From Synechococcus sp. (GTDB lineage Bacteria > Cyanobacteriota > Cyanobacteriia > Thermostichales > PCC-7336), in NCBI GenBank assembly GCA_051439425.1, contig JBFRWD010000056.1:1-21468 (forward strand): DNA of 21,468 nt, read 5' to 3'. Both the position numbers and the translations under genes were made by a program. Below, one piece after another: positions 3,123 to 19,253 of the stretch. The notes beneath the pieces were generated by a model. That model was not told the DNA's origin and ran no database searches. It was given only the letters and a program-made list of their open reading frames with translations. How positions within the stretch are numbered: the first letter of the stretch is position 1; each line of letters begins with the position of its first letter.

Positions 3123-3740
3123 ATGCTAGTACCCGTCAAATATTTCTGCCGATTAAAGATACTCACTTTGCTGACTGGGGTTGGCTTAATGGGGATGGTG
3201 GCCTTTTTTAATCCTCCAGCGGTTTCTCAGCAAGCCGAGCTCCGTCAACTAGAGGAGTTTCTAGCCCCACCTCCCACCGCATTTCCTGAGCCGCAACAAT
3301 TACCAGCAGCAGCTCCGCTTCCGGCAGTGGTCCCCGAACAGTTCTCTACTCCTGACAATACTGCTGCCCCGGTTCGAAATAATCCGTCCAATCCTCAAGT
3401 CCCTCAAGAACGTCCTTCTCAAGTCAGCAATCCTCGCAACCCTTCTCCCGCTCGCCCTGGAACCGAGCGGGTTGAAAGCTCGAATGTTGCAGTCAGGGCG
3501 ACTAGTATTCCCCGCCTAGAATTAGGACCGGAATATGGAGAGGGGAACTTCATTGTGTTGATGACATACGATGGAGAAGATAGCCTTACACTTGCTCGAG
3601 AGTATTCGGCAGGTGCGTTTGTCAAACAGGTTGAGGGGGATCCGTACATTCAATTGGCGGTATTCGATCAACTAGAATATGCGCGTCACTTGGCGAGTCG
3701 TCTGCGCAACCAAGGGCTGTCAGTACTGGTAGCCAATTAA
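3123..3740 (+). CDS. Secreted Pro-rich protein with a C-terminal cyanobacterial SPOR-like (peptidoglycan-binding) domain
   Basis: Basic then hydrophobic N-terminus ending PAVS/Q (signal peptide), P/N/Q-rich linker, and a C-terminal YIQLAVFDQLEYARHLASRLRNQGLSVLV resembling the SPOR pattern Q-L-G-x-F...A...L...G. Confidence 0.65.
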   Translation: MLVPVKYFCRLKILTLLTGVGLMGMVAFFNPPAVSQQAELRQLEEFLAPPPTAFPEPQQLPAAAPLPAVVPEQFSTPDNTAAPVRNNPSNPQVPQERPSQVSNPRNPSPARPGTERVESSNVAVRATSIPRLELGPEYGEGNFIVLMTYDGEDSLTLAREYSAGAFVKQVEGDPYIQLAVFDQLEYARHLASRLRNQGLSVLVAN

Positions 3741-3979
3741 TAGTTAGGCATACTAGAGCACATCTAGTCCGAATAGGCTTTATGGCATCTTTATTGCACC
3801 ATATTTGCTGTTGCGAGAGACCTGCGTGTCTGTGGGCGGACTTGCCTCCACTGAAACTATTGACATGCAATTTGAGCAAGTTACTGCATGCGAGTCTCAA
3901 GACGGGATAACCTAGTGGTTCACCGCTAAGAATTACATTGGGTTCGGGAGCGACCTAGCAAAATCTGCAACATGCCTCT

Positions 3980-6187
3980 ATGACTGAAATTGGTCAACTG
4001 CTAAAAAGTCGGTATTTGATTTCAAACCTTCTGAGTGGAGGAGGGTTTTCAGTCACTTATCTAGCGAAGGATACTCACCTACCTGATTACCCGGATTGCG
4101 TTGTCAAGCAACTCCGACTGTTAAGCAACGATCTGCAGCAGGTAGAGAAAGTTCGAGAGTTTTTCTTCAACGAAGCCAAAATGTTGAGGAAACTGGGAGC
4201 CATTCACGGTCAGATTCCCGAGCTGCTTGCATACTTTACCGACGAAGACAGCGAGAACTTCTACATCGTTCAAGAACACGTTCCGGGCAAAACACTCAAG
4301 CAAATCCTGGGAACCGACCTCAGGCTGACAGAGCCAGAGGTTATATACATTCTGAAAGAGGCTCTCGAAGTCCTTGAATTTGTCCACTCCTACAATGTTA
4401 TCCACCTCGATATCAAACCCGACAATTTAATTTTGCGAGAGAGTGATTTCAAGATTGCTCTGATCGATTTTGGGTCGGTTAAGCAAGTCCGCACCCAGAT
4501 GGCGACATCCAACAGTCTGACCCCCCAGACGACCACTCTAGGCACGCCCGGATACATGCCATGCGAGCAGTCGTTCGGTCGCCCTAAACTCAGTAGCGAC
4601 TTCTATGCTCTGGGCATGGTTGCAATCCGAGCCCTGACGGGAATTCATCCGAAAGAGTTGGAGGAGGATTTAGCAACGGGTGAAGTGATTTGGAAAGAAA
4701 GGACTCACATCCGGCCCGAACTCAAAACCCTCATCGATCAAATGGTGCGCTACCACTTCAACCAGCGCCCTCAGTCAGCTTCAGATATTTTGATAGAGCT
4801 GGCTAAGCTTTCATCCTTCTATTCCGAAGATGTCACCTGTTGTTCGGCTCGTTTGAAACGGATGGTGGGTGGCAGCGACGAGCCTTCCCAAACCCCAATT
4901 AGCCATGACCCAACTCGGCCTAGCGATGCCATGAGGGCACGTTATGAAATGCCGACCATCGTGGCGTCTGAGCCTGCATCTCTAACAGATGCTCAGCAAG
5001 AATCTCATCAACATGCTGCTGCGTCGTCTCCCTCTTCTTCACCAACTCCTGCACTTTCGCCTACTTCCTCCTCTTCATCGTCCCCTTCGAAGCCCTCCCT
5101 TACTTCCATGCCACCAGGGTTAATCTCGAAGTCCGATCCCCAAGTAACGCGCGCACCATCCACAGCTAGCACACCCCGTTCCCAGCGAGCATCTGCCCAG
5201 CCGGTATCTACTCCGATTCCACAGGACTCCTTAGCCCCTGTGAATGCCTATCCAGATACTATTCTTGTTCCTCCTCAAACAAGAGGAACTGCTCCAGTAA
5301 ATTCTGACACGCCGCCTTCCGGTGCGGCCGATCCGAGGTTTAAGGGAGATCGGTTTACTGACTCGAAGGAGGTGGAATATCTCCCTGACAGCGATAAGAG
5401 CTTGCGCCGTCAGTTCAAGATCAAAGTGGCTCCAGTGTTAGTCGTGACAACGGCAATTGGGTTGGGAATGCTGGCCACTTGGGGGGGAGGCCTCTATCTC
5501 GAACACCAGGCTTACACGGCAGAAGATCGCCAGCAATTGCGTCAAGCTCGTGAGTTGGCAGATAGCGATGTGGATCGGGCGATTGAAATTGCTAGAGGTA
5601 TTCAATCAAATTCTCCGTTCTATCCAGAAGCAGTCGATCTACTTGAAGATTTGCAGGGCCAGCAAGTTCTCGCTCGGGAACGGGAGTTGCTTACTCAGGC
5701 GCGTGACCTATCGGTGACAGATTTGGAGGCCGCACTGACCACTGTTCGCGAAATTCCGTCGTCTTCGCCACTGTATGAAGAGGCTCGTTTGGAGGGGTTG
5801 GAATGGCAGGGACAGCTCTTGGAGCAGGACTTGGCCGGCAGTAGTCAAACGTTGGCTACTCTGGCGCCGCAGATTGAGATTCGCGCTGACGTTCTGTATT
5901 TGCAATATGACGGTTCCTCCGATGAAAAATTGATCGGAGAAGAGGGGATTCGACGGGTTGCGATCGCGACCATGTCTGTCGTGCGCTCCCGCTATACCGA
6001 TTTTGACCAGCTGGTTGCATATCCCGAAGGAGAAAACATACAAGGGATGCTCGATCTCGATCTGTGGACGTCTTACGAGCAGGGTGAAATTAGCCTGGAG
6101 CAGCTCCTGTCACAAATCAAAGTGGGAGACCGTTCCTCTAATACTCCCGACCAAGTAGCAAGCTACACTTCAGGACGCTGGGGATAA
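3980..6187 (+). CDS. Transmembrane Hanks-type Ser/Thr protein kinase (cyanobacterial Spk/Pkn type) with a periplasmic repeat domain
   Basis: LSGGGFSVTY, CVVKQL, EAKML, HLDIKPDN, DFG, GTPGYMPCEQ and SDFYALG. These are followed by an S/P/T-rich linker, one TM helix (VAPVLVVTTAIGLGMLATWGGGLYL, about 5426-5500), two 51-aa helical repeats and a C-terminal domain. Confidence 0.95.
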   Translation: MTEIGQLLKSRYLISNLLSGGGFSVTYLAKDTHLPDYPDCVVKQLRLLSNDLQQVEKVREFFFNEAKMLRKLGAIHGQIPELLAYFTDEDSENFYIVQEHVPGKTLKQILGTDLRLTEPEVIYILKEALEVLEFVHSYNVIHLDIKPDNLILRESDFKIALIDFGSVKQVRTQMATSNSLTPQTTTLGTPGYMPCEQSFGRPKLSSDFYALGMVAIRALTGIHPKELEEDLATGEVIWKERTHIRPELKTLIDQMVRYHFNQRPQSASDILIELAKLSSFYSEDVTCCSARLKRMVGGSDEPSQTPISHDPTRPSDAMRARYEMPTIVASEPASLTDAQQESHQHAAASSPSSSPTPALSPTSSSSSSPSKPSLTSMPPGLISKSDPQVTRAPSTASTPRSQRASAQPVSTPIPQDSLAPVNAYPDTILVPPQTRGTAPVNSDTPPSGAADPRFKGDRFTDSKEVEYLPDSDKSLRRQFKIKVAPVLVVTTAIGLGMLATWGGGLYLEHQAYTAEDRQQLRQARELADSDVDRAIEIARGIQSNSPFYPEAVDLLEDLQGQQVLARERELLTQARDLSVTDLEAALTTVREIPSSSPLYEEARLEGLEWQGQLLEQDLAGSSQTLATLAPQIEIRADVLYLQYDGSSDEKLIGEEGIRRVAIATMSVVRSRYTDFDQLVAYPEGENIQGMLDLDLWTSYEQGEISLEQLLSQIKVGDRSSNTPDQVASYTSGRWG

Positions 6188-6333
6188 GGTCGTATACTAA
6201 CTCCGATACATAAAATATTAGATCGGTGTATAGTTTGGGAACGAAAAAACCACAGCTTCGCCCTCCTTTAGTACGGCATCTGAGGTCATGCCTGTCAGTC
6301 GCGTGCCTTACCACTTGGCCAGTGAAGTGGATT

Positions 6334-7023
6334 ATGGCTCGTTCGCTGGGGCGTTTAGCAGTCTGTAGTTTTTCTGGGGTCACAGTTATCGCATCGCCTG
6401 CTGTTGTTTGGGCACAGCCGGACGAACTTCAGCAATTGGAGGATTTCCTTAGTCCACCGCCGACAGAGTCGCTTCAATTGCAGACTGCTCCAGCTCAGCC
6501 TCCTTACCCCGCTCAATCTTTGCCGGCTCAACCTCTTCCCCCAGCCTCCCCGATTCCTCATGCTATTCCTACAACCTCTGCCGAATCTACGGTGGTTACT
6601 CCTCCTTCTAGGCAGCAGCCCTTACCCAGTCAGCCCCTAGTCCAGCCTCAACTAGCAGTTCTGTCCCTCAATAGCCACAGCCCCGGAACATTAGGTAATC
6701 CTAGACAATTGCACGAGGGGTACTACCAGGATTTGTTTCAGTTTGAGGGGCAAATGGGAGAATTGATTCTGCTCAATTTAATTGGTAGCGACGATCCCAG
6801 AATGGAATTGGACCCTCGCTTGCAGTTAATTGCTCCTGATGGCTCAATCGTGGCTGAGGATGATAACGGTGGATATGACTCTGCCAGGGGAGATGCGCGC
6901 ATTGTTCTCATGCTCCCCGACACAGGCTCTTACACGGTTGTGGTCACAACTGCGGATCCTGACGATCGCGGGCGCTACACCCTAGGATTGTTAGAAGTTG
7001 ACGACCCCAGCCAGATTCAGTGA
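6334..7023 (+). CDS. Secreted Pro/Gln-rich protein with a single C-terminal PPC (pre-peptidase C-terminal) domain
   Basis: ATG 6334 gives a plausible signal peptide (MARSLGRLAVCSFSGVTVIASPAVVWA/Q). The C-terminal DLFQFEGQMGE...LDPRLQLIAPDGSIVAEDDNGG...DARIVLMLPDTGSYTVVVT...GRYTL is a typical PPC signature. The ORF-track start at 6226 is probably too far upstream. Confidence 0.8.
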   Translation: MARSLGRLAVCSFSGVTVIASPAVVWAQPDELQQLEDFLSPPPTESLQLQTAPAQPPYPAQSLPAQPLPPASPIPHAIPTTSAESTVVTPPSRQQPLPSQPLVQPQLAVLSLNSHSPGTLGNPRQLHEGYYQDLFQFEGQMGELILLNLIGSDDPRMELDPRLQLIAPDGSIVAEDDNGGYDSARGDARIVLMLPDTGSYTVVVTTADPDDRGRYTLGLLEVDDPSQIQ

Positions 7024-7319
7024 TGATACGCATGCTGGCAAGTACTGCTATCACATCCTGAGACTGACAATTTTTCCCATTCTCTAGCTCTCATCAGATG
7101 TCGTGTGACCGGAGAGTGGGTTGATACCTTCAATCAACCTCTGATAGTACAAAATGCAGTCACTCAATAGGGGAACAAAACGCACTTCATCGTTTTCACG
7201 TCTCCTATTACACTGGGAAATAACTGGCCACCTTATTTCTCAATCGTGTTGTTACGGATTCTCTGACCGATCGAGATACCGTCAAGAACTCATCACTCTC
7301 TAATTGGTTGAACGGATTT

Positions 7320-9221
7320 ATGGATGCAATCACTCTTGCTTGGACAGAAGCAGGCCAGCGAAAGACACAGACATTCGTCGATACCTACTCGACCAAGACC
7401 CCCGGAACGATTCGAGTCGGGCGAGACCCTGCTCAGTGTGATGTTGTGCTTCCCTCTCTGAGCGCTAGCGATCGCACTGTTTCACGACTTCATGTAGAGA
7501 TTGCGTTCAACCCCACCCATTCATCGTTCTACCTGCGCAACCTCAAGCCGCAAAACCCCGTTCAGGTGGATGGTTCTGCCGTGACGAACGAAGCGGTTCT
7601 GCAAGAGGGCAGCACTATTCGCCTGGGCAAAGTGGAAGTGGAAGTGGCGGCGGTAGCTGCTGTGCCCGCGACGATTTTTGTCTCTGCAAGCGAGCGGCCC
7701 ACACTGGTATATAAGCCTGCCGAAGATACGCACGTGGAGGCTGAACGTTCCGCACAACGACACGAAATTCAATCGCGTAATACGCCTCAAGAGCCTCGCA
7801 ATGGAGTGACTGCTTTCGATCAACCTACCGAACTGGAGGAGCAGGCTGAGGTAAGTCACCAACTTAATGTGACGGAATCAGCAGACGAGCAGGTGTCTGC
7901 TGCGGAAAATGGCACTTCCCCCCCGACTAGTCAATCAATACCGGGTCAATCAGTAACGGGTCAGTCGAGTACGGCTGTAGTGCAGCCAGCTCTTAGCCCA
8001 GTCGATCGCGCACAAGATTTTCTCAACTCTATTCCCAAACCTTCGTTTTCTGTCCAGTCCTTACTCAAACCTGCTCCATTAGCGATTGGTGCGGCTGTTC
8101 TTGCTGCGGTCGGGTTGTTGCAATGGCAGCGTCTCAACACCATCACCAGTACTAAAGCATTTGTCAACAGTCGTATTATTTCGATTACTGCCCCTGTTTC
8201 CGGGGAGTTGCGCCTGCAAAACATCAATTCCGGGCAGTTGGTCCAAGAAGGAGTGCTGCTAGCCAATATTTTTGACCCTCGTAACATCGAGCTACAACGC
8301 ACTCAGCAGCGATTAAAAAATGAACTAGAAAATCTAATCTATCGTCAGCAACAGTTGCAAGTGCAGTTGAATGACCGGCGCGAATCCTTTCAGCGAATTC
8401 AAGATGAAGCTAGTACTCAACAATCCCTCCAGCAAGGCTCGACCGAGTTCTTAGAGGCCGAGCTAGATGATGCCATCGCTACGGCCCGAGAAGCTCAAGC
8501 CAATGTTGTGCAAGTTCGGGATTTGGCAGCTGAAGGGACAATGACCGACCAAGAAGTTGAATTGGCTGAAGCTGCCCGGGATAGTGCTGAGGATGTCGTC
8601 AACCAACTGCGTGAGCAATTGGCCTCAGCGCGACGAGGGGATGAAACCGAACAGCAGTCTTCATCGGTTTCAACTGTTGTCGAAAATCGCAGGTCAGCTC
8701 TTCAAAATGAAGTTGCTAATTTTGAGCAAGTATTAGAAAACTTACAGGCTGAATCCGATGACAAACAACGCCAACTGGATTCCATTACCGACCGGCTTTC
8801 TCGTCAAACGCCAGCCAACATTACCAGTCCCACTGCTGGAGAAATCTGGACGGTAGAATACCAACCCGGACTATCCAACACGGTGGTAGTGTCTGGAGAT
8901 GGCATTGTCGAGTTGGCGCAGTGCGAAGGGTTATGGGTTGAAGCTGTGGTTTCATCCCGCGATGCCACCAATATTTCCGTAGGTGGTGATGCCAGCATCT
9001 TTATTCCCGATGGGTTCCGCCACCAGAAACTTGATGGGGTTGTGCGGGAAATCCGCACTTCGTCCGAGCCTGTAATGGTGAGTGCCGATGAGGTGGCTAT
9101 TTCACCCGAGAATTTGGGGCCTGGAGAGGTGGCAGTCATGGTGGATTTGAAGTCACCTGAAAACTCTGGGAATTTCTGCAATATTGGCCGCACGACTGAA
9201 GTTCGCTTCTCACGCAGTTAG
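7320..9221 (+). CDS. FHA domain fused to a HlyD-like membrane-fusion (periplasmic adaptor) protein
   Basis: N-terminal cyanobacterial FHA (ITLAWTEAG...GTIRVGRDPAQCD...TVSRLHVEI...NPVQVDG...IRLGK), S/T/Q/E-rich linker, TM helix (APLAIGAAVLAAVGLLQW), lipoyl half ITAPVSGEL...GQLVQEG, long coiled coil, second half ITSPTAGEIW, and beta-barrel LWVEAVV...C-NIGRTTEVRF. Start at ATG 7320 is preferred over TTG 7308. Confidence 0.85.
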   Translation: MDAITLAWTEAGQRKTQTFVDTYSTKTPGTIRVGRDPAQCDVVLPSLSASDRTVSRLHVEIAFNPTHSSFYLRNLKPQNPVQVDGSAVTNEAVLQEGSTIRLGKVEVEVAAVAAVPATIFVSASERPTLVYKPAEDTHVEAERSAQRHEIQSRNTPQEPRNGVTAFDQPTELEEQAEVSHQLNVTESADEQVSAAENGTSPPTSQSIPGQSVTGQSSTAVVQPALSPVDRAQDFLNSIPKPSFSVQSLLKPAPLAIGAAVLAAVGLLQWQRLNTITSTKAFVNSRIISITAPVSGELRLQNINSGQLVQEGVLLANIFDPRNIELQRTQQRLKNELENLIYRQQQLQVQLNDRRESFQRIQDEASTQQSLQQGSTEFLEAELDDAIATAREAQANVVQVRDLAAEGTMTDQEVELAEAARDSAEDVVNQLREQLASARRGDETEQQSSSVSTVVENRRSALQNEVANFEQVLENLQAESDDKQRQLDSITDRLSRQTPANITSPTAGEIWTVEYQPGLSNTVVVSGDGIVELAQCEGLWVEAVVSSRDATNISVGGDASIFIPDGFRHQKLDGVVREIRTSSEPVMVSADEVAISPENLGPGEVAVMVDLKSPENSGNFCNIGRTTEVRFSRS

Positions 9222-18440: not shown

Positions 18441-19253
18441 TCAAATTCCTAGCGAAATAACGGTGGGAACATCATGTAATCCTGAAGACGTGCCCATTTC
18501 GTTAATGGCGTGCTCTTCATCGCTGAGGTTGGATGTGCCGGCAAATTGAATGCACTTGCCTTGTTCCAAGGCGACGATGGTCCGAGTAATCGAGTAGATC
18601 GAGCACTTGAGCCGTGCAGCCAGTTCCCACAAGGTGCAATTGTTATCAATCACATTTGGCAATCCGGAAAAATTTGTACCAAATGTCAATTGAGCCAGCA
18701 TATCCGGGTTGATGACGGTAGGGACTGAACTGGGGGAAATTGCTTTCCAGCCTTTTTGATCCCAGCGCTCAACTAGCTTCGCCACATCTGGCCACACTTT
18801 ATTGATGTTGATAGAAACTAGCGGTGCTTCCTCAAACGTGTCAAGCGACTGCCAAGTCATCTTGTAGTTGTTAACGGCAGAGTTGCCTTCGTGGTTGAGT
18901 TCTTGCAGTGCCACCTCAAATAAGATTTCGCAGACACTACTGCCCAGAATTTTGATTGCTCTGGGTTCGGCGATCGCGTTTTTCACGATCAGCTCGTTCA
19001 GAACCAAGTAATTCCATTCGTTTTCTGGGTAACGAAACTCCCCTTGAGGAAGGTTCGAGCGATAGCGCGCCACTTGTCGTTGCCAGCGCTGGAGGGGAAA
19101 CATGCCGCCAGCGTCTGCCACAAGGCTGCCTGCCAAAAACAGTAACCTCCAGGCGGTTCCGTTATTGTTTGTGATGTTGAACACGCCAGTGAAATCAGGC
19201 TGAGAGCACAGCTTCAGATAGGTACTGAGTGTGGAGCAGATGGCAGTAGGCAT
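18441..19253 (-). CDS. PatA-family N-terminal (PATAN/DUF4388-like) domain protein lacking a receiver domain
   Basis: FTGVFNI...WRLLFLAGSLV...GGMFPLQRWQRQV, W-x-Y-x-x-L, EILFEV, W...G...ISP...P and TLWELA match the PATAN + linker region of PatA-type regulators. It stops where the REC domain would start. Confidence 0.72.
   Translation of the reverse strand: MPTAICSTLSTYLKLCSQPDFTGVFNITNNNGTAWRLLFLAGSLVADAGGMFPLQRWQRQVARYRSNLPQGEFRYPENEWNYLVLNELIVKNAIAEPRAIKILGSSVCEILFEVALQELNHEGNSAVNNYKMTWQSLDTFEEAPLVSININKVWPDVAKLVERWDQKGWKAISPSSVPTVINPDMLAQLTFGTNFSGLPNVIDNNCTLWELAARLKCSIYSITRTIVALEQGKCIQFAGTSNLSDEEHAINEMGTSSGLHDVPTVISLGI

Follow-up and report, generated by a model that had tools for sequence, protein, structure and literature searches.

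Two secreted proteins encoded on either side of a Hanks-type Ser/Thr kinase gene in a marine cyanobacterium, Synechococcus sp., begin their mature chains with almost the same 14-residue peptide, and the question raised by this locus is what that peptide is for. The locus was analysed within a stretch of 21,468 nucleotides (contig JBFRWD010000056.1, positions 1 to 21,468), referred to here as the window; G000 is the genome of the window, other G numbers are further genomes compared, and P and L numbers designate proteins and loci. The two carrier open reading frames (ORFs), at 3123-3740 and 6322/6334-7023, flank the kinase gene at 3980-6187, all on the plus strand. The first encodes a secreted chimeric protein of 205 residues with a signal peptide, the motif, a Pro-rich linker and a SPOR-like domain (3456-3737), and is kept in G003, G001 and metagenome proteins. 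The second encodes a secreted protein with a signal peptide, the motif, a Pro-rich linker and one PPC domain. The motif was found only in the cyanobacterial family of the window and there on three genes, namely both window genes and an unlinked PPC paralogue. The reading that we favour on sequence grounds, with slightly less than even confidence, is that the motif helix is a candidate tethered ligand for the periplasmic part of the adjoining kinase, displayed from two anchors.

The two peptides, ELRQLEEFLAPPPT at 3237-3278 and ELQQLEDFLSPPPT at 6424-6465, are identical at 11 of 14 residues, eight of which are encoded by different codons, as the initial annotation of this DNA had described. Both begin at position +4 after the predicted signal-peptide cleavage (A-V-S/Q and V-W-A/Q), the sites being inferred from the n-region, the h-region and the A-x-A sequence. 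Counted from the mature Q1 to P14, the copies are QQAELRQLEEFLAP (3228-3269, plus strand; 3237-3278 begins at E4) and QPDELQQLEDFLSP (6415-6456, plus strand). A set of 24 carriers was assembled, nine from genomes, 13 from whole-protein searches and two from the motif search. Excluded from it were P0001 and P0011, both entries of the window itself, P0003, P0015 and P0024, each a duplicate or nearly so, P0010, whose call lacks part of the N-terminus, and the frameshifted P0027. All 24 show the conserved core Q-x-x-E-[LI]-x-Q-L-[ED]-x-[FY]-L-x-P from +1 to +14. The stretch from -1 to +14 is free of indels in every carrier, with A at -1 in 23 carriers and S in one, and A, V or T at -3 throughout. 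The motif therefore lies outside the predicted signal peptide in a fixed register, as had been proposed. Residues Q1, E4, Q7, L8, L12 and P14 are invariant. The excluded P0027, a frameshifted SPOR-like chimera, also carries the motif, and compared with P0028 its later part has shifted frame.

The first 14 mature residues are conserved like folded domains or better, while the signal peptide and the linker drift. This was assessed by comparing, by genome pair, the identity of these 14 residues with that of the last 110 residues. For G000 and G003 the motif was 0.93 identical in both families, against 0.87 for the PPC and 0.84 for the SPOR-like domain. The SPOR-like proteins of G000 and G001 gave 0.71 for the motif against 0.56 for the domain, the PPC proteins of G000 and G005 gave 0.57 against 0.55, and G000 and G002 gave 0.64 against 0.65. 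Signal peptides were only 0.24-0.32 identical in the same comparisons and linkers 0.30-0.47. Among the 330 pair-cells that cover the six invariant positions (11 genes), 211 differ synonymously, which bears out conservation at the protein level. The AlphaFold2 (AF2) model of the PPC protein places a helix at mature residues 2-12, with a predicted local distance difference test score (pLDDT) of about 76 over residues 1-10, followed by a low-confidence linker and a beta-sandwich; the hydrophobic moment of the motif is 0.28-0.52. The motif is thus predicted to form a helix that is both amphipathic and acidic, carried on a flexible Pro-rich tether. The helix of the initial description stands as a prediction; its polyproline end does not belong to the motif, since P15 and P16 are each proline in 14 of the 24 carriers and the PPP tail is not conserved.

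The distribution of the motif is narrow. Eight patterns, from strict to [LI]..L..[FY]L.PPP, matched only the two window sites among 64,919 six-frame ORFs of the genome, and the loosest pattern, FL.PPP, gave eight matches in the same set. A hidden Markov model (HMM) of the motif, built from nine carriers, gave three strong matches in the genome (38-43 bits; next best 9.3 bits). The third is the unlinked PPC paralogue G000:C60:4010-4618, minus strand (L054:4010-4618), also present in G003 (L049) and as P0026. Across the order, the motif profile matched five of 30 genomes, all in the window's family. The 401 genomes of the class added two weak matches only (G100 and G258), which were dismissed as short off-frame reads or as lying inside other ORFs without a signal peptide. 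Among 1.84 billion representatives, seven proteins passed the motif search; six are PPC or SPOR-chimera proteins, and the seventh, P0025, was set aside as a repeat artefact. Scans with degenerate DNA patterns returned true carriers at five of ten genome loci and three of seven metagenome loci, all from the PPC or SPOR-chimera families. The remaining loci (five of the ten, non-cyanobacterial, and four of the seven) were short off-frame or ORF-internal stretches with no signal peptide. The pattern and profile search suggested at the outset thus yielded a third carrier and showed the motif kept in relatives within the family. Loss from orthologues, a position inside the signal peptide or frequent occurrence in unrelated proteins, any of which had been named beforehand as grounds for abandoning the idea, was not encountered. 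Just one further PPC-like domain turned up in the genome (G000:C117:5210-6604, minus strand); it belongs to a protein with a trypsin-like region and without the motif. A literature search, with subscription papers and supplements outside its scope, found no published description of the motif or of the cassette.

The kinase between the two carriers (735 residues) consists of a cytoplasmic kinase domain, a Pro/Ser linker, one predicted transmembrane (TM) segment and a predicted periplasmic ectodomain. The TM segment (about residues 483-507; 5426-5500), read from the sequence, is preceded by RRQFKIK, and its orientation follows the established positive-inside rule. The kinase belongs to the Hanks type (PF00069, 106 bits against a cut-off of 31.7; Pkinase E 2e-30), with VVKQL, HLDIKPDN and DFG present. 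It is of the non-RD kind: HLD replaces HRD in all five family kinases read, and a relative in G327 has HRD. It does not fall among the PASTA kinases, the NF033483 match reaching 113 of the required 450 bits over the kinase domain only, with zero PASTA matches. The 207-residue ectodomain was modelled with a pLDDT of 93.5 as helical hairpins and an alpha/beta domain. Two TPR-like hairpin repeats occupy 5513-5812. They give generic TPR-like fold matches (Z 7-8.7) with no TPR family above the cut-off, and repeats of this type are common in cyanobacteria (307 of 401 genomes). The unnamed alpha/beta C-terminal domain (5813-6133) is the hallmark of the kinases whose genes pair with those of secreted PPC proteins. 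It gave no Pfam match above the cut-off and no Foldseek match at E 0.001, a best E of 0.2 in a PDB sequence search and a best Atlas score of 0.86; the VIA structure matches were filled by the repeats, together with which the domain was modelled. It occurs at 18 loci in 17 of the 401 genomes, in four families. A phylum-wide search with the whole ectodomain (E 1e-18; 401 genomes, seven candidates each) returned G000 only, being swamped by repeat proteins and hence uninformative. One relative of the kinase, P0023, carries the source name Synechococcus sp. PCC 7336, which is cultured.

The first helix of this C-terminal domain (5813-5845) has a recurring L-E-[EQK]-[YFH]-L that resembles the LEEFL of the motif; a mimicry of this L-E-[EQ]-Y-L helix of the kinase by the motif has only a partial pattern match in its favour. 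Complex prediction with alignments of the ectodomain (A5) and the mature peptide (A6) scored 0.69, 0.73 and 0.69, with unrelated-peptide controls at 0.54, 0.15 and 0.00; the required gap of 0.20 over the control at 0.54 was missed, and the result was not used as evidence either way.

The pairing of this kinase type with PPC genes extends well beyond the family. The PPC domain of the window protein (6634-6996; model residues 74-194) adopts the PPC fold, matching the collagenase PPC domain 5sv5_A with Z 14.2 and a root-mean-square deviation of 2.2 over 103 aligned residues; its PF04151 score is 17 against a cut-off of 25.9 bits, and relatives score 50.9 and 34.1. A secreted Pro-rich PPC gene lies directly downstream at 15 of the 18 kinase-domain loci, in agreement with the tie to the kinase type supposed earlier. 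Of the other three, the G263 locus has a homologous 5' end cut by the contig end, the G006 locus cannot be judged, and in G001 an unrelated gene stands where the PPC gene would be. G327, outside the profile set, likewise has a PPC gene after the kinase. The trees of the kinase domain and of PPC (quick method) have several small clades in common, as expected of co-inherited genes. At repeat-only loci, a weak control for adjacency as these are not kinases, no PPC gene was found within 1.5 kb (0 of 8). In the distant partners, two PPC domains come after N-terminal peptides that are specific to the lineage. The first 14 residues of the G333 and G263 partners agree at 14 of 14 positions against 16 of 25 for the signal peptide (the G226 peptide is identical too), and those of G217 and G291 at 14 of 14 against 21 of 30 for the linker. 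By eye only, some distant partners look motif-like: those at L108:7037-8137 (G271) and L105:3281-4444 (G054) begin QNGPSEIERRLEDFGRPP and QSGCGTSEIQQLAC, and EIERRLEDFGRPP of the G271 partner gives the same impression.

Within the order, motif and kinase go together. G000 and G003 have the chimera, the kinase, the PPC gene and the unlinked paralogue; G002 and G005 have the kinase and the PPC gene; G001 has the chimera and the kinase with no PPC-domain match found (99% complete, 140 contigs), the motif persisting on the chimera immediately upstream of the kinase. In two metagenome contigs (L077 and L083) the chimera likewise lies immediately before the kinase; a third is too short to show it. 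Neither motif nor kinase domain was found in G004 and 23 sister-family genomes. Over the 30 genomes, which are kin and not independent, motif and kinase domain occur together in five and are both missing from 24; the kinase stands by itself in G006, and the motif by itself nowhere. In G006 the PPC gene is cut at the contig edge, the contig stopping 104 bases after the kinase. Every motif-bearing genome has one such kinase with a carrier adjoining.

Both window proteins most likely owe the motif to a common ancestor sequence, and the initial view that they are otherwise unrelated has to be given up. The C-terminal part of the chimera is paralogous to the C-terminus of a motif-less, membrane-anchored core gene (G000:C80:14278-15294, minus strand), which encodes a cytoplasmic part, a TM segment, a linker and a SPOR-like domain. 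This core paralogue was matched in six of six family relatives and 21 of 23 sister-family genomes. It has no Pfam or NCBIfam match at E 0.01 and is a candidate cell-division or envelope protein of the order. The core protein (L055:7279-8295, minus strand; L046, L047, L048, L050-L053) also has an acidic cytoplasmic patch and an L-[ED]-E-L-P-L-I-P word. SPOR-like genes with the motif turned up solely in genus g1 (G000, G001 and G003) and among metagenome proteins; G002 has no chimera, and none was found in G005, a second genus with the motif-bearing PPC gene. When signal peptides were scored without the motif, that of the G001 SPOR-like protein matched the G002 PPC protein with Z of about 11, and that of the G000 SPOR-like protein matched the PPC protein P0008 with Z 9.4; an AQP-x-RF linker word is common to the G001 SPOR-like protein and PPC proteins. 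The window's own pair has no mutual match left (Z of about 0 for the signal peptides, about 1.5 for the linkers). By these alignments the N-terminal ends of the two families are homologous. Because the signal peptides match across the families, the SPOR-like gene is inferred to be a chimera, probably of the 5' end of a PPC gene and a copied 3' end of the core SPOR-like gene. In the domain tree the chimeras fall in a polytomy, a single origin not being rejected (p 0.37 in the approximately unbiased test, p-AU); 5' ends were possibly exchanged more than once. The sharing of the motif is then a matter of inheritance, and its selective retention is the point needing explanation. The SPOR-like domain matches Pfam SPOR with E 0.022 (15.5 against a cut-off of 21, profile positions 4-32 only) and scores 0.95 in the Atlas to a cyanobacterial SPOR cluster in which 58% of the members have PF05036; it probably sits on peptidoglycan. 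Display from two different anchors is thus upheld by the PPC fold on one side and by this cluster match on the other.

If the helix is a ligand for the kinase, Sec export and signal-peptide cleavage would free Q1, and the face L5-L8-F11-L12, flanked by the invariant E4 and Q7, would dock on this kinase, which has no second of its type in the genome. The C-terminal domain, PPC on some surface or polymer and SPOR-like on peptidoglycan, would set where and when the helix is offered. Docking would alter kinase activity, by activation or by inhibition, and the output may be read by nearby FHA proteins, an FHA-HlyD protein here and trypsin-TM-FHA proteins at several other loci. The SPOR-like gene would have gained the helix by partial gene duplication. 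A more far-reaching and more tentative proposal, for which we would claim about one chance in three, is a receptor-kinase and ligand cassette in which a lineage-specific N-terminal helix, tethered to a secreted protein, is read by a Hanks kinase whose periplasmic domain is new, the helix having been grafted, possibly repeatedly, onto SPOR-like and unlinked PPC proteins to give up to three inputs per receptor.

Several observations weigh against a kinase ligand. The C60 paralogue retains the motif away from the kinase, and the 12 kb around it hold no kinase of this type. The co-occurrence comes from five genomes that are related to one another, with G001 as just one event. The kinase-PPC gene pairing could reflect binding of the PPC domain and not of the helix, and the likeness of the ectodomain repeats to TPR is generic (Z at most 8.7). 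The partners with identical peptides, G333/G263 and G217/G291, are close relatives. Not every cassette has a conserved N-terminal peptide: the N-termini are poorly kept in the partners of G076 and G054, of one genus (3 of 14 against 0.61 for the domain), and kept only in part in those of G334b and G327 (5 of 14 against 0.59). Outside the family, matches to the motif were scored for four of ten partner N-termini (p = 0.43, 0.07, 0.25 and 0.05), none convincing.

The helix may instead dock on some other envelope partner, such as an outer-membrane or S-layer protein, a membrane surface or another copy of itself, and so localise the PPC and SPOR-like domains, any sensing by the kinase going through the PPC domain. 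Short acidic amphipathic helices are docking elements of a general kind, the unlinked paralogue keeps the motif, and across distant cyanobacteria the PPC domain is constant while the N-terminus varies. We nevertheless think this unlikely, if well worth keeping in mind: G001 keeps the kinase and the motif with no PPC domain detected, none of the genomes searched has the motif without the kinase domain, and the chimera adjoins the kinase and not the locus of its core paralogue. A processing or export element appears rather improbable. The motif would then be an early-mature-region signal, a protease site or a tether cap, and the gene pair perhaps a substrate of the trypsin-TM-FHA proteases, which lie directly upstream of the kinase in G005, G333, G226 and G263 (in G263 by similarity only) and a few kb from it in G076 and G054. 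The register fixed relative to the cleavage site would fit. The three carriers in the genome do not make a general tag, however, and the earlier suggestion of a general secretion or sorting tag finds no support on the same count: of 100 crude secreted candidates of the genome, 16 begin with Q, the commonest first residue, and one of these 16 has the motif. Furthermore, G000 (96% complete) has no full-length trypsin-TM-FHA homologue and no PF05096 glutaminyl cyclase. HtrA, whose PDZ domain had been put forward as a binding partner, adjoins the locus only in G000 and G003, no homologue being present in the 19-kb loci of G001, G002 and G005, and that link is not maintained.

The homologous 5' ends, perhaps exchanged repeatedly in view of the polytomy, and the lack of a chimera in G002 would also suit a relic of partial duplication or gene conversion with no present function on the SPOR-like protein. 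We give this little credit: synonymous sites have largely diverged around six invariant residues, a codon pattern that already largely refutes it, the signal peptides and linkers of the window pair are no longer alike, and within the SPOR-like family the motif is better conserved than the domain. Least probable of all is that the motifs are convergent or derive from the L-[ED]-E-L-P-L-I-P word behind the TM segment of the core SPOR-like protein. MAFFT does align a core LEELPLIP-like stretch with LEEFLAPP, but just three to four residues agree, the signal-peptide similarity and the AQP-x-RF word point to descent from the PPC gene, and the motif-bearing PPC gene exists in a second genus (G005) where the chimera was not found.

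A kinase ligand of this kind would have partial precedents. Gene-paired receptor-peptide cassettes include Rap-Phr, Rgg-SHP, ComD-ComC, AgrC-AgrD and AimR-AimP. Like these, the locus has a receptor gene beside the gene of a secreted partner and a short lineage-specific peptide, and the adjacency of proposed receptor and partner is conserved (15 of 18 loci). The helical repeats of the proposed receptor are TPR-like in a generic way, RapI being among their fold matches (Z 7.7). Unlike in these systems, the part of receptor would fall to a membrane-bound Hanks-type kinase whose ectodomain lies in the periplasm, and the peptide would stay N-terminal on a tethered protein of about 200 residues encoded by up to three genes per genome; the carriers are no small precursors but proteins of 185-262 residues with a folded anchor domain. 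With bacterial receptor-type Ser/Thr kinases, among them the PASTA kinases PknB, PrkC and Stk1 and the cyanobacterial classes of PMC2176072, the locus kinase shares the order of kinase domain, linker, TM segment and external domain as well as FHA proteins nearby, but it lacks PASTA, has HLD for HRD and an ectodomain without a Pfam family. The window PPC protein has the beta-sandwich fold of other PPC proteins (PF04151), from which it differs in standing alone without a peptidase domain, in its N-terminal helix and in its kinase-paired gene. FtsN, DamX and RlpA are SPOR-domain proteins (PF05036); the core paralogue is laid out like FtsN, whereas the window copy is a soluble chimera with a Pfam score under the cut-off.

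What cyanobacterial receptor-type Ser/Thr kinases sense is, to our knowledge, largely unknown. The locus provides two concrete candidates for such a pair, namely a peptide of 14 residues and an ectodomain of 207 residues, both easily made and tested, and the analysis defines an unnamed ectodomain and a kinase-PPC cassette across four families. Should the helix prove to be a kinase ligand, a bacterial receptor kinase would here have a protein as its ligand, rewired through the shuffling of 5' ends, and a signalling input could be moved to a new anchor by swapping a gene's 5' end. Should it not, the locus would still be a clean case of a selected N-terminal module spread by domain shuffling. In the available part of its text, a survey of cyanobacterial Ser/Thr kinases names 14 extra domain types, and the words 'PPC' and 'ligand' have 0 occurrences (PMC2176072).

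The gene following the PPC gene (7308-9221, plus strand) encodes an N-terminal FHA domain fused to an HlyD-type membrane fusion protein, a possible phospho-Thr reader. It is next after the PPC gene in G000, G003 and G002, and not in the G001 or G005 loci. Such a fusion could place an export system under the control of phospho-Thr. The trypsin-TM-FHA proteins, encoded beside the cassette or not far from it in several lineages (L044:4358-6412, L110:9570-11234, L111:4080-5726, L112:4467-6131, L104:1012-2709 and L105:7178-8992), combine a secreted trypsin-like domain, a TM segment and a cytoplasmic FHA domain; the G005 copy appears by eye to lack the catalytic His and Ser. At L107:2657-7619 (G334) two kinase-PPC cassettes stand in tandem, with both kinase genes split over two reading frames, through either an assembly error or decay.

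For the PPC gene, GTG 6322 or ATG 6334 is the probable start, and not 6226. The start at 6322 is favoured because in a related strain, X2, the GTG at 6322 is ATG and the ATG at 6334 is CTG. One contig of run X1, from which this DNA possibly comes, covers the window stretch with zero differences. Promoter and terminator scans of the locus were at chance level (6 against 3.7 and 2 against 4.1, respectively). No RNA dataset was listed for the locus, which is uninformative on expression; the DNA datasets holding it include marine sediment metagenomes. Elsewhere in the window, a 270-residue ORF on the minus strand (18441-19253), with no Pfam match at E 0.1, presumably resembles a PatA-type N-terminal domain.

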